A stretch of DNA of 64,000 nt from sequence record MZ234025.1. The stretch is one strand, 5' to 3'. A model generated the notes under the pieces. The model saw only the letters and a list, made by a program, of their open reading frames with translations. It made no database searches and was not told the origin of the DNA. Every line of letters starts with the position of its first letter. Position 1 is the stretch's first letter. Below are positions 43,755 to 60,171 of the stretch, piece by piece. Source of the stretch: Escherichia phage vB_EcoM-172859UKE1. A program made the position numbers and the translations under genes.

Positions 43755-43829
43755 GGCCCTGTAGCTCAATGGGAGAGCTGTCAGCTCATAACTGATAGGT
43801 AGCTGGATCGAAACCAGCCAGGGTCACCA
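43755..43829 (+). tRNA. tRNA-Met (anticodon CAT; could be initiator, elongator or lysidine-modified Ile2)
   Basis: Hand-folded cloverleaf: 7-bp acceptor stem, D arm GCTC/GAGC, anticodon loop CTCATAA, T arm GCTGG/CCAGC, encoded CCA; T-loop ATCGAAA is atypical. Confidence 0.75.
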
Positions 43830-43832
43830 ATC

Positions 43833-43909
<77 letters not shown>

Positions 43910-56820: not shown

Positions 56821-57119
56821 TGGCTCAAATCCTATCAGGCTTTGGAACTCATTATGAAGCATCTCGACGCATAACTGAAAGCAATCCTTTTGGCCTTGTT
56901 CCGAAGCACAAGAAAATTCAAAGCCTTGATGACTTTGAGAATCGCTTATGGGCCCTCTTTAATGAGTACAAGGCATATCTGAAAGAAGACGCTGACGATT
57001 GTCTTGAAGAAGATGAGATTGCGTATTACGAACAACGCCTTGAACAGCTCAAGAACTTCCACCAGGTTCGTGACGAAGTATCTAAAGCAGTTAAAAAGTT
57101 AATTCCTTTCAAAGAGTAG
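56820..57119 (+). CDS. Hypothetical protein (99 aa)
   Basis: ATG 56820 after AGAGGA SD; the ORF-track start at 56778 is less likely. Confidence 0.5.
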
Positions 57120-57147
57120 TTTACTTCTCCTCTAGTTGTGTTACTAT
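57119..57147 (+). promoter_or_regulatory. Early promoter with 14-bp inverted repeat whose right arm contains the SD
   Basis: GTTTAC at 57119-57124, 17-nt spacer, TACTAT at 57142-57147; arms TTCTCCTCTAGTTG (57125-57138) / CAACTAGAGGAGAA (57156-57169). Confidence 0.65.
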
Positions 57148-57175
57148 AGACCTGTCAACTAGAGGAGAAATCAAA

Positions 57176-57634
57176 ATGACTATCAATTCAGACGTTTTTA
57201 TCCGCCGTAATAAACTCCGTCGAATCTTTGAAACGGAGTTCCGCAAAATAAATGCCAGTATAAAAGATGCTGCAAAGTCTCTTGGACTACCAGGCTTTCA
57301 TATCAAGTATTCTCAACATCTCTTAGATCGTGCCATCCAGAGAGAAATAGATGAGAATTACGTTTTTGAATTATTTCGTAAAGTAAAAAATCATGTTAAA
57401 GAAGTTGCAGAATTTTTATCAATGCCGGCACGTCCAGATGTTGATGAAGATTTTGTCGAAGGTGTCGAATATCGCCCAGGCCGTTTAGAAATAACTGATG
57501 GAAATCTTTGGTTAGGACTTACAGTTTGTCGCGAAAATCCGGCATTCAAAATGAAGACTCTTCAATGCAGAATGGCTATTATTAACAATAAACGACTACC
57601 AGGAAAAGCTTCTAAAGCAGTGATTAAAATCTAG
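57176..57634 (+). CDS. regB: RegB site-specific endoribonuclease
   Basis: 152 aa; matches recalled T4 RegB (MTIN..VFIRRNKLRR...YSQHLLDRAIQREIDE...GKASKAVIK). Confidence 0.9.
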   Translation: MTINSDVFIRRNKLRRIFETEFRKINASIKDAAKSLGLPGFHIKYSQHLLDRAIQREIDENYVFELFRKVKNHVKEVAEFLSMPARPDVDEDFVEGVEYRPGRLEITDGNLWLGLTVCRENPAFKMKTLQCRMAIINNKRLPGKASKAVIKI

Positions 57635-57642
57635 AGGTAAAC

Positions 57643-58185
57643 ATGAGAAAAGCACTACTCGCTGGTCTATTTGCTCTTTCGTTATCAGCACATAGCTCCG
57701 AGCATACTTTTAGTAATGTCCAACTCGATAACTTGAATTATGCTTATCAGTTTGGGGAACAGTTTTCTAAGGATGGAAAATTTAAAACGCATGAAAATAT
57801 GCATAAGAAAGGACTTGGATACATAATGGCCGCAATACTATGGCAGGAATCATCTGCTGGTATTAATCTTAAAGATAAGAAAGGTCACCATGCGTATGGA
57901 ATGTTCCAAAATTATCTACCAACAATGAGGGCAAGAATTAACCAGCTTGGTTATAATATGACTGATGCCCAAATTAAGAAAATGCTATCTAAGCGGTCTA
58001 ATTCAACCAGATGGGCTTATATCGAATTTTCTTATTGGTTAAATATACATAATGGGGATATAAGAAAAGCTATATCCTCATACAATGCGGGATGGAAGAC
58101 AAGTGCTGGAAGTAAATATGCTTCTGAAGTCCTAGAAAAGGCTAATTACCTTAAATCAAATAAACTACTGGAAATAAAAGAATGA
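57643..58185 (+). CDS. Putative secreted lytic transglycosylase (SLT-like)
   Basis: Signal-peptide-like N-terminus; ES motif (WQESSAG) and AYNxG-like SSYNAG typical of SLT domains. Confidence 0.55.
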   Translation: MRKALLAGLFALSLSAHSSEHTFSNVQLDNLNYAYQFGEQFSKDGKFKTHENMHKKGLGYIMAAILWQESSAGINLKDKKGHHAYGMFQNYLPTMRARINQLGYNMTDAQIKKMLSKRSNSTRWAYIEFSYWLNIHNGDIRKAISSYNAGWKTSAGSKYASEVLEKANYLKSNKLLEIKE

Positions 58186-58529
58186 CCAAAATGTTGGCTT
58201 TAATAGTTGGCTTGGTTTCATTTAACACTCTTGCTAATACTACATATACTGATGTAACGGAGTATACAAACAGAACGGCGTCTGATTATTGTGGTAAAAG
58301 TCAAGAGTGTAAAGTAGATTTTTCACAAAAATTGTTATATGCGTATAAAGACGGAGAAAAAGATGGGGCGTCTAGTAGGTTCAAGGCGTCTACCTTAATT
58401 AAAAGATACTATAAAAAATGGCAAATATTAGAATGCTCGGTGGCGGAACCTAAAGATAAGGCAGCATGCAATTCTATGGTGGACCGTCTAGTTGACTCTT
58501 ATACTAGAGGACTTGCAGCAAGTGATTAA
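58182..58529 (+). CDS. Putative secreted Cys-containing protein (115 aa)
   Basis: N-terminal signal-like MTKMLALIVGLVSFNTLA; four Cys. Confidence 0.5.
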   Translation: MTKMLALIVGLVSFNTLANTTYTDVTEYTNRTASDYCGKSQECKVDFSQKLLYAYKDGEKDGASSRFKASTLIKRYYKKWQILECSVAEPKDKAACNSMVDRLVDSYTRGLAASD

Positions 58530-58989
58530 AAACTATATCAAGGGCGATATTGTCGCCCTGTTTTCTAAAGGTAATAATATTGCTCATGGGTGTAATTGTT
58601 TTCATACAATGGGCGCTGGTGTGGCAGGACAATTAGCAAAGGCTTATCCAAAAATTCTGGAAGCCGATAAACTTCAAACCGAATTCGGAGACGAGTCTAA
58701 ACTCGGGTCTTATTCGGTTTATGAAAAATATTTTAAGACCCATAAAGCTTATTGCTTTAATCTTTATACACAGTTTGAGCCTGGACCTAATTTTGAGTAC
58801 TCTGCTTTAATGAATTGTATAATAGAATTAAATAAATTCGGAAAGAATAAGATAACAAAGCCTTTAATTTATATGCCAAGAATTGGTGCTGGTATCGGTG
58901 GCGGAAACTGGGATATCATCGAAGAGATTTTAGATACGTATTCCACTAAACTAGAAATTGTGATTGTTGATTGGGAACCATTATTATGA
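58492..58989 (+). CDS. Macro-domain-like protein (start uncertain, ATG 58492 or GTG 58522)
   Basis: Motifs GDIV, HGCNCFHTMGAGVAGQL and PRIGAGIGGGNW resemble macro-domain GDIT / NAAN..GGGV / GxxG signatures. Confidence 0.6.
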   Translation: MTLILEDLQQVIKNYIKGDIVALFSKGNNIAHGCNCFHTMGAGVAGQLAKAYPKILEADKLQTEFGDESKLGSYSVYEKYFKTHKAYCFNLYTQFEPGPNFEYSALMNCIIELNKFGKNKITKPLIYMPRIGAGIGGGNWDIIEEILDTYSTKLEIVIVDWEPLL

Positions 58990-59198
58990 ATATACATTAT
59001 CCACATCCATACGACCCAAAGAATAAGGCAGTAATTATTCGTCAATGGGAACGCATTTGTCGTACTAAATGTCCAATTAATAGTCCACATGATGTAGATA
59101 AAGACTACATTGGAACATTCGTTGAATATACCTTTATTGATAAGAAAGGTCGTAAACAGCATGTAGAAGAATACTGCTTAAAGGTGACATGGTTATGA
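58986..59198 (+). CDS. Hypothetical protein (70 aa)
   Basis: ATGA overlap with upstream stop. Confidence 0.45.
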   Translation: MNIHYPHPYDPKNKAVIIRQWERICRTKCPINSPHDVDKDYIGTFVEYTFIDKKGRKQHVEEYCLKVTWL

Positions 59199-59401
59199 GC
59201 CAAACAAAAATTCTTACAGGCGCTAAATGCGAAAAATGCGAATGGCCTGTAGTTTTTGCTTTATGCAATGACGAAATGGCTTGTGATTTTGATTATTGGT
59301 GTTACTGTTCGAACAAAGGTTGTAGTAATCATAAAGGTGAAGGGTTTTACTCAGGATTTTACCCTTACCCAGATTTCGTTAAAGAAGGTGAACCTAAATG
59401 A
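59195..59401 (+). CDS. Cys-rich small protein (68 aa), possible zinc ribbon
   Basis: CEKCEW...CDFDYWCYCSNKGC. Confidence 0.5.
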   Translation: MSQTKILTGAKCEKCEWPVVFALCNDEMACDFDYWCYCSNKGCSNHKGEGFYSGFYPYPDFVKEGEPK

Positions 59402-59580
59402 AATTGACTAAAGAAGAGAAAGCTAAACTGTTCGAACTTATCCATGACCTATTGGATGAACAAGCAGCCACCAATGCGTACGATGAATATGCTCCTTTGA
59501 CGGACGAAGAATATCACGCATTGATGGAATCATTTGACAGGAAAGAACAAGAACTCATTGACTACGTGAATTCACTATAA
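59398..59580 (+). CDS. Hypothetical protein (60 aa)
   Basis: ATGA overlap; helical acidic protein. Confidence 0.45.
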   Translation: MKLTKEEKAKLFELIHDLLDEQAATNAYDEYAPLTDEEYHALMESFDRKEQELIDYVNSL

Positions 59581-59589
59581 GGGACTCTT

Positions 59590-60171
59590 ATGGCTAGTTT
59601 AATTTTTACATATGCCGCTATGAATGCTGGTAAGTCCGCTTCATTACTTACTGCCGCACATAACTATAAAGAACGTGGCATGGGTGTATTAGTTCTTAAA
59701 CCGGCTATTGATACTCGCGATTCAAAAGGTGAAATAGTCTCTCGTATTGGTATTCGTCAGGATGCCAATATAATTACAAAAGACATGGACATCTTTGAAT
59801 TCTATAAATGGGCTGCAGCACAAAAGGATATTCATTGTGTATTTGTTGACGAAGCTCAGTTCTTAACTACTGAAAAGGTGTATCAACTTAGTCGTATTGT
59901 TGACGTATACAATGTGCCAGTAATGGCATATGGACTACGAACAGATTTTAAAGGTAATCTATTTGAAGGTTCTCAAGCATTAATGGCTATTGCCGATAAG
60001 CTTGTTGAACTTAAAGGTGTCTGTCATTGTGGTAAAAAGGCCACAATGGTAGCTAGAGTCACGGAAGACGGACTTCCAATTACAGATGGCAGTCAAATTG
60101 AAATTGGTGATACTGATAGATACGTGTCATTATGCCGGAAGCATTGGAATGATTTGACAGGGTTGTTATAA
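59590..60171 (+). CDS. tk: Thymidine kinase
   Basis: 193 aa; matches recalled T4 Tk (MASLIFTYAAMNAGKSASLL...CRKHWN). Confidence 0.95.
   Translation: MASLIFTYAAMNAGKSASLLTAAHNYKERGMGVLVLKPAIDTRDSKGEIVSRIGIRQDANIITKDMDIFEFYKWAAAQKDIHCVFVDEAQFLTTEKVYQLSRIVDVYNVPVMAYGLRTDFKGNLFEGSQALMAIADKLVELKGVCHCGKKATMVARVTEDGLPITDGSQIEIGDTDRYVSLCRKHWNDLTGLL

Follow-up and report, generated by a model that had tools for sequence, protein, structure and literature searches.

The DNA analysed here (hereafter the window) is a stretch of 64,000 nucleotides from Escherichia phage vB_EcoM-172859UKE1 (MZ234025.1). It shares 99.5% identity with Escherichia phage vB_EcoM_LNA2 and about 98% with numerous RB69-like genomes of the genus Mosigvirus, and is itself part of a Mosigvirus genome. 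A tRNA-Met (CAT) and a tRNA-Arg (TCT) gene lie side by side at 43755-43909 of the plus strand; the T4 cluster, with eight tRNA genes, is much larger.

The regB-tk block and its macrodomain gene

On the plus strand, ORFs, Pfam matches and the T4 annotation delineate a conserved, tightly packed regB-tk block (57176..60171). Its gene order, common to the window and T4, is regB (57176-57634; Pfam REGB_T4, E 2e-69), vs.1 (57643-58185), vs (58182-58529, stop codon at 58527-58529), tk.4, which is the macrodomain gene studied here (58522..58989), tk.3 (58986-59198; Pfam DUF7202 over residues 1-70, read from ATG 58986), tk.2 (59189-59401; Pfam Phage_zn_bind, a phage zinc-binding protein), tk.1 (59398-59580; Pfam DUF7438), and the thymidine kinase gene tk (59590-60171; Pfam TK). 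A preliminary description of the locus had located a macro-domain-like gene between regB and tk, which is right in outline, the exact neighbours being vs and tk.3. It had also spoken of periplasmic and accessory neighbours. Indeed, vs.1 has a signal-like N-terminus and a weak SLT transglycosylase match that stays below threshold (19.4 bits for a cut-off of 21.3), and vs, for which there is no Pfam match, also has a signal-like N-terminus. As a whole, however, the block is the ordinary conserved regB-tk early region of T-even phages. The product of vs is called “valyl-tRNA synthetase modifier” in other annotations, and its signal-peptide-like N-terminus (MTKMLALIVGLVSFNTLA) is unexpected, given that the enzyme it supposedly modifies is cytoplasmic. 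In T4, vs is reported to be conditionally essential in minimal medium (HIDEN-SEQ, bioRxiv 10.1101/2025.11.20.689424).

The ORF list of the window contains a 165-codon plus-strand ORF that runs from TTG 58492 to a stop codon at 58987-58989. The macro-type motifs attributed to it in the preliminary description are all present (KGDIV, HGCNCFHTMGAGVAGQL, and PRIGAGIGGGNWD), and its stop was rightly placed, but its start has to be moved. The gene almost certainly starts at GTG 58522 and encodes a protein of 155 amino acids, because homologues are 150-160 amino acids long and begin with “MI..”, because a near-identical orthologue in KP869101 (Mosigvirus) is annotated from the equivalent base, because, in a DNA alignment, this GTG falls exactly opposite the ATG of T4 tk.4, and because a Shine-Dalgarno-like GAGGA, conserved in T4, sits 10 nt upstream (58507..58511, plus strand). 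Initiation at TTG 58492 was rejected, as distant tblastn matches begin only at residue 11 of the 165-residue ORF. The in-frame extension from this TTG (58492..58521, plus strand) is the 3' end of vs, which stops just downstream, and is probably not translated as part of the macrodomain protein. The coding sequence thus delimited (GTG start, TGA stop) is also consistent with the Pfam Macro match and with the AlphaFold2 model described below.

The end of vs and the start of the macrodomain gene share positions 58522-58529 (GTGATTAA, plus strand), and the stop codon of the macrodomain gene overlaps the start of tk.3 in an ATGA sequence (58986..58989, plus strand). Therefore, the translation of vs, of the macrodomain gene and of tk.3 is probably coupled. 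Upstream of regB, a sequence resembling a T4 early promoter was read by eye (57119..57147, plus strand); it associates a -35-like GTTTAC (57119-57124) and a -10-like TACTAT (57142-57147) separated by 17 nt, and it is the sole candidate promoter for the whole block. A generic sigma-70 scan of the region returned 16 sites for 15.7 expected, which is chance level, and a search with the MotA-box pattern returned 21 sites for 16.1 expected, near chance. The one MotA-box match inside the macrodomain gene (58803-58828) was rejected, its spacer being too short.

Two potential RNA structures were observed in the block. Upstream of regB, a perfect 12-bp inverted repeat is found on the plus strand, with its left arm CTCCTCTAGTTG (57127-57138) between the -35 and -10 elements and its right arm CAACTAGAGGAG (57156-57167) covering the regB Shine-Dalgarno sequence. 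The corresponding hairpin, which could mask regB translation, could form only in transcripts reading through from upstream. Within codons 7-15 of the macrodomain gene (58541-58559, plus strand), a terminator-like hairpin of 8 pairs, AGGGCGAT-ATT-GTCGCCCT, is followed by GTTTTCT. T4 has the same 26 nt around the hairpin, whereas the flanks differ between the two phages, and the RNA fold z-score is -2.4. This could reflect a structural RNA element, or merely the conservation of the KGDIVAL codons.

A compact macrodomain of the ALC1/TARG1-like class

The product of 58522-58989 matches Pfam Macro (PF01661) over profile positions 2-117 of 118 with 27.2 bits (E=4e-6), above the gathering cut-off of 22, and PHROG 335 with E=9e-66. 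An AlphaFold2 model, built from an input alignment from which the T4 sequence was left out, has a pLDDT of 94.9 and a pTM of 0.90. The predicted structure is a three-layer alpha/beta/alpha macro fold, and its best Foldseek match is human TARG1/OARD1 (E 2e-10). Family profile, model and fold search thus agree with the macro domain proposed at the outset, and the fold assignment is virtually certain. With such matches, the ORF is very unlikely to be open by chance. The closest proteins, by sequence as well as by structure, are TARG1, DarG, Poa1p, SCO6735, and Bt_1257, and not MacroD, PARG, or macroH2A. Judged from these comparisons and from the model, the protein is a stand-alone macrodomain of the ALC1/TARG1-like class.

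The family is large. A tblastn search of 50,697 phage records with the 165-residue ORF as query hit 2,797 of them. Near-identical phages carry the gene in GenBank under the labels “macro domain protein”, “ADP-ribose binding module”, or “phosphatase”. In T4, the counterpart is tk.4, annotated as “phosphatase; contains A1pp phosphatase motif”. Over the full 155 amino acids, T4 Tk.4 and the window protein share 85% identity, and both genes occupy the vs/tk.3 interval of the regB-tk block; the motifs H22, N25, D49, and N80-x-Y-T-Q84 are shared. The window gene is the orthologue of T4 tk.4 (also named adfM) in a Mosigvirus of the RB69 type. The two differ as follows: T4 is a Tequatrovirus and not a Mosigvirus, its gene starts with ATG rather than GTG, and residue 127 is a lysine in T4 and a glycine in the window protein. 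The gene was already known as an annotation, and the function of its T4 orthologue has been known since late 2025.

A glutamine at the position of the catalytic lysine

The active site was compared with that of characterized macrodomains by using the sequences of Mycobacterium tuberculosis and T. aquaticus DarG, TARG1, Bt_1257, and SCO6735 taken from the PDB, and that of PhiKZ gp104 taken from its published construct. All were aligned to a profile HMM of the phage family (HMMER), and residue conservation was counted among 120 retrieved homologues. Residue numbers refer to the 155-residue protein. A plain MAFFT alignment of DarG, TARG1, and PhiKZ gp104 had shifted the catalytic strand by two residues, thereby avoiding a gap; it was discarded because the DarG loop is simply two residues longer. 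The profile-HMM alignments were preferred because they are mutually consistent and match the published structure-based alignment of SCO6735, Bt_1257, TARG1, and DarG (PMC9411070).

Loop 1 and the catalytic loop correspond to the motif H22-G-C-N25-C-F-H-T-M-G-A-G-V-A-G36 (58585..58629, plus strand). N25, present in 118 of the 120 homologues, aligns with DarG N22, SCO6735 N27, and PhiKZ AdfM N23, and H22 (117/120) aligns with Poa1p H23 and TARG1 H32. Poa1p H23 and S30, both probed by mutation, align with H22 and with T29, the latter found in 71 of the homologues. The glycine-rich diphosphate-binding loop P119-R-I-G-A-G-I-G-G-G-N-W130 (58876..58911, plus strand) aligns with PRIGCGLAGGKW in Bt_1257, PRIGCGLDRLQW in TARG1, and PPLGVGNGGLDW in DarG; P119, G122, and G124 are invariant. 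The loops predicted to bind ADP-ribose, G31-x-G33 and P119-x-I-G-x-G-x-G-G128, are conserved.

The main peculiarity lies in the motif N80-L-Y82-T83-Q84 (58759..58773, plus strand), located from HMMER alignments to TARG1, both DarG proteins, Bt_1257, and SCO6735. It aligns with high posterior probability with N-F-P-T-K80 of DarG and L-I-T-K84 of TARG1. Therefore, the catalytic lysine, K80 in DarG and K84 in TARG1, is replaced by a glutamine, Q84, in the phage protein. This residue, together with N80 and Y82, is found in all 120 homologues, and D49 is invariant too. Moreover, D125, the partner of K84 in the TARG1 dyad, corresponds to G126. An invariant glutamine in place of the DarG/TARG1 lysine is the one point that goes beyond the published accounts consulted.

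Q84 aligns with Gln85 of SCO6735, a protein of Streptomyces coelicolor that is 54% identical to Bt_1257 and has this glutamine at the catalytic-lysine position. SCO6735 rescues Escherichia coli from DarT and cuts thymidine-linked ADP-ribose off single-stranded DNA faster than DarG or TARG1, being inactive on guanosine-ADPr; its Q85A variant is dead and its N27S variant nearly dead. A water-mediated catalysis was proposed, with Asn27 locking Gln85 in place and Gln85 orienting the distal ribose (PMC9411070). Q84 and N25 of the window protein are the counterparts of SCO6735 Q85 and N27, and Bt_1257 is also a Gln-type ALC1-like protein. In contrast, SCO6735 (PDB 5E3B) and Bt_1257 (PDB 2FG1/2AFC) are bacterial chromosomal proteins that share only 23-29% identity with the window protein, and the mobile loop that follows their glutamine is 5-6 residues longer than in the phage clade. 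This loop, about five residues longer and carrying DNA-contacting lysines, was called characteristic of the SCO6735/Bt_1257 subclass and linked to DNA binding (PMC9411070). The substrate-contacting K34 and K89 of SCO6735 have no counterpart: A32 stands at the first position and the loop is deleted at the second. The phage protein resembles TARG1 here, since the Q84-Y93 spacing equals that of TARG1 K84-Y93 and equally many residues separate the catalytic position from the following helix. Thus, the phage clade carries SCO6735-like catalytic residues on a loop of TARG1 length. Human TARG1/OARD1 (PDB 4J5R/4J5S) also reverses thymidine-ADPr, with its K84/D125 dyad where the window protein has Q84/G126.

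The antitoxin of DarTG2, DarG (PDB 5M31, 5M3E, 5M3I), was compared as well. In the NCBIfam and PADLOC libraries, the sole matches of the window protein are DarG models, at 30-32 bits and over the macro part of DarG only. For the DarG equivalog NF048014, the match reaches 30 bits for a cut-off of 250 and covers model positions 4-146 of 338. The window protein ends at residue 155 and does not have the C-terminal DarT-binding domain, K80 of the NFPTK motif of both T. aquaticus and M. tuberculosis DarG is Q84 (NLYTQ), and no darT gene lies beside the macrodomain gene, whose neighbours are vs and tk.3. By score, catalytic residue and gene adjacency, the protein is outside this equivalog.

A further comparison is provided by PhiKZ gp104, also named AdfM, which removes DarT2-made thymidine-ADPr from a DNA oligonucleotide in vitro; mutation of its conserved asparagine (N23A) lowers the activity (Cell Rep 2026, PMC13309987). 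Like the window protein, it is a stand-alone phage macrodomain, and it counters DarTG2. However, it is of the Lys type (MFPTK78, as in DarG) and is imported into the phage nucleus. With blastp, PhiKZ gp104 and the window protein align over 23 residues only (E 0.004). The PhiKZ and T4/RB69 proteins are not orthologous and represent two independent recruitments. Hence, the name AdfM spans a Gln type (T4, RB69) and a Lys type (PhiKZ), of which only the PhiKZ protein has biochemical evidence. Since the two proteins are not orthologous and use different catalytic residues, results should not be transferred from one to the other untested. ICP1 AdfB was also considered as a relative and set aside, as it is a DarT-binding protein and not a macrodomain.

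Probable role against DarTG2 and competing readings

Genetic evidence on the function comes from T4. When a T4 transposon library was grown on E. coli expressing DarTG2, tk.4 was the single significant gene and was named adfM, for anti-DarT factor Macrodomain; a clean tk.4 knock-out sensitized T4 to DarTG2 (HIDEN-SEQ preprint, November 2025, bioRxiv 10.1101/2025.11.20.689424). This result agrees with the earlier observation that T2 and T4 lacking the NADAR factor AdfN are still resistant to DarTG2 (PMC11825919). As to enzymatic removal of ADP-ribose by T4 AdfM, the authors only say that it “seems likely” (bioRxiv 10.1101/2025.11.20.689424). The anti-DarTG2 phenotype is that observed with T4; with 85% identity and conserved synteny, the same role in the phage of the window is highly probable. 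The proposal that the protein reverses ADP-ribosylation by DarT-type toxins, made in the preliminary description, is therefore supported by the requirement for the syntenic T4 gene on a DarTG2 host and fits with DarG being the sole NCBIfam and PADLOC match. The other function put forward there, in which the protein would hydrolyse immune signals derived from ADP-ribose (as in Thoeris), received no support.

We favor a model, with a probability of roughly 0.7, in which the protein is an early-expressed orphan antitoxin that strips the ADP-ribose added by DarT2 from single-stranded phage DNA. The gene would be transcribed early, together with the regB-tk block. In a DarTG2 host, DarT2 would attach ADP-ribose to N3 of thymidine within TNTC motifs where the phage DNA is single-stranded, thereby blocking replication. 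The phage macrodomain would then bind the ADP-ribose via its glycine-rich loops and hydrolyse the thymine-ribose bond, allowing replication to proceed. Its active site would work as in SCO6735 and not as in the Lys-type DarG and TARG1: Q84, held by N25, would place the distal ribose where a water molecule can attack it. By analogy with SCO6735, hydrolysis of thymidine-ADPr by the window protein itself is quite probable. The absence of the catalytic lysine of DarG and TARG1 speaks against hydrolysis at first sight; this argument was dropped, as the Gln-type SCO6735 is an efficient thymidine-ADPr hydrolase. The model has other weaknesses: the longer mobile loop tied to DNA binding in SCO6735 is absent from the phage clade, and the supporting genetics, which are those of T4, stand in a preprint.

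The long-standing GenBank labels (“phosphatase; contains A1pp phosphatase motif”) imply a metabolic enzyme acting on small molecules, either a Poa1p-like ADP-ribose-1''-phosphate phosphatase or an O-acetyl-ADP-ribose deacetylase. However, these names are homology transfers, Poa1p has a serine and not a glutamine at the position of Q84, and the DarTG2-specific phenotype of T4 tk.4 would be left unexplained. To our knowledge, there is also no source of ADP-ribose-1''-phosphate in T-even infection, and we regard such an activity as very unlikely to be the main one. Alternatively, the protein might act on DarT2 chiefly by binding to the toxin and thus blocking it, and not by hydrolysis. Indeed, the catalytically dead SCO6735 Q85A, DarG K80A, and TARG1 K84A still inhibit DarT on DNA, SCO6735 being the strongest (PMC9411070), and blocking of DarT is how the phage factors AdfA and AdfB work (PMC11825919, PMC11481870). 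On the other hand, the window protein is devoid of the DarT-binding domain of DarG. In addition, N25, Q84, and the glycine-rich loops show no or almost no variation in 120 homologues whose hosts carry very different DarT proteins, a pattern expected of a catalytic site and not of a toxin-binding surface. Toxin blocking as the principal mechanism is thus unlikely.

The main substrate might also be something other than DarT2-modified DNA, protection against DarTG2 being a side activity. Candidates are ADP-ribosylated RNA (U-ADPr), proteins carrying Glu/Asp-ADPr, the products of the phage's own transferases Alt, ModA, and ModB, and immune signals (Thoeris gcADPR). TARG1-like macrodomains, including SCO6735, do hydrolyse U-ADPr RNA and Glu/Asp-ADPr proteins (PMC13036486, PMC9411070), and a family found in 2,797 phage records is extremely widespread. 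A tblastn search of plasmids for DarG-linked relatives returned stand-alone macro genes only, and no DarT was present in the four contexts inspected (Chondrinema, Eleftheria, Vibrio vulnificus, and Vagococcus). These contexts are unrelated neighbourhoods that encode Gln-type macrodomains (N..YTQ or N..YSQ); the Vagococcus “plasmid” context resembles phage DNA in that it contains numerous small hypothetical genes and encodes a YopX family protein. As DarT is lacking beside all four relatives, the gene neighbourhoods provide no separate evidence for a link with DarT, which weighs against the orphan antitoxin and is compatible with another substrate. Taken as a whole, a different main substrate has in our opinion a low probability, and removal of ADP-ribose from DarT2-modified phage DNA remains the preferred function.

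The discovery value of the gene itself is small, as a macro annotation is present in many GenBank records and an anti-DarTG2 role has already been assigned to the T4 orthologue. A more general suggestion, which we find rather doubtful and put forward tentatively, is that the Tk.4-type macrodomains of T-even phages may represent a third active-site configuration within the ALC1-like class, combining a glutamine, a short mobile loop of TARG1 length and their own invariant D49, N80, and Y82, and recruited independently of the Lys-type AdfM of PhiKZ. Having this distinct configuration, they could act by a lysine-independent mechanism and on a wider range of substrates than DarG does: thymidine-ADPr DNA and, for instance, U-ADPr RNA or Glu/Asp-ADPr proteins. 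A wider range, if true, might explain why about 2,800 phage records, covering many host genera, contain the gene. In any case, the T-even clade offers compact and very widespread Gln-type proteins for studying the lysine-independent removal of ADP-ribose from DNA, and it is relevant to the question of how common intrinsic DarTG2 resistance is among phages.
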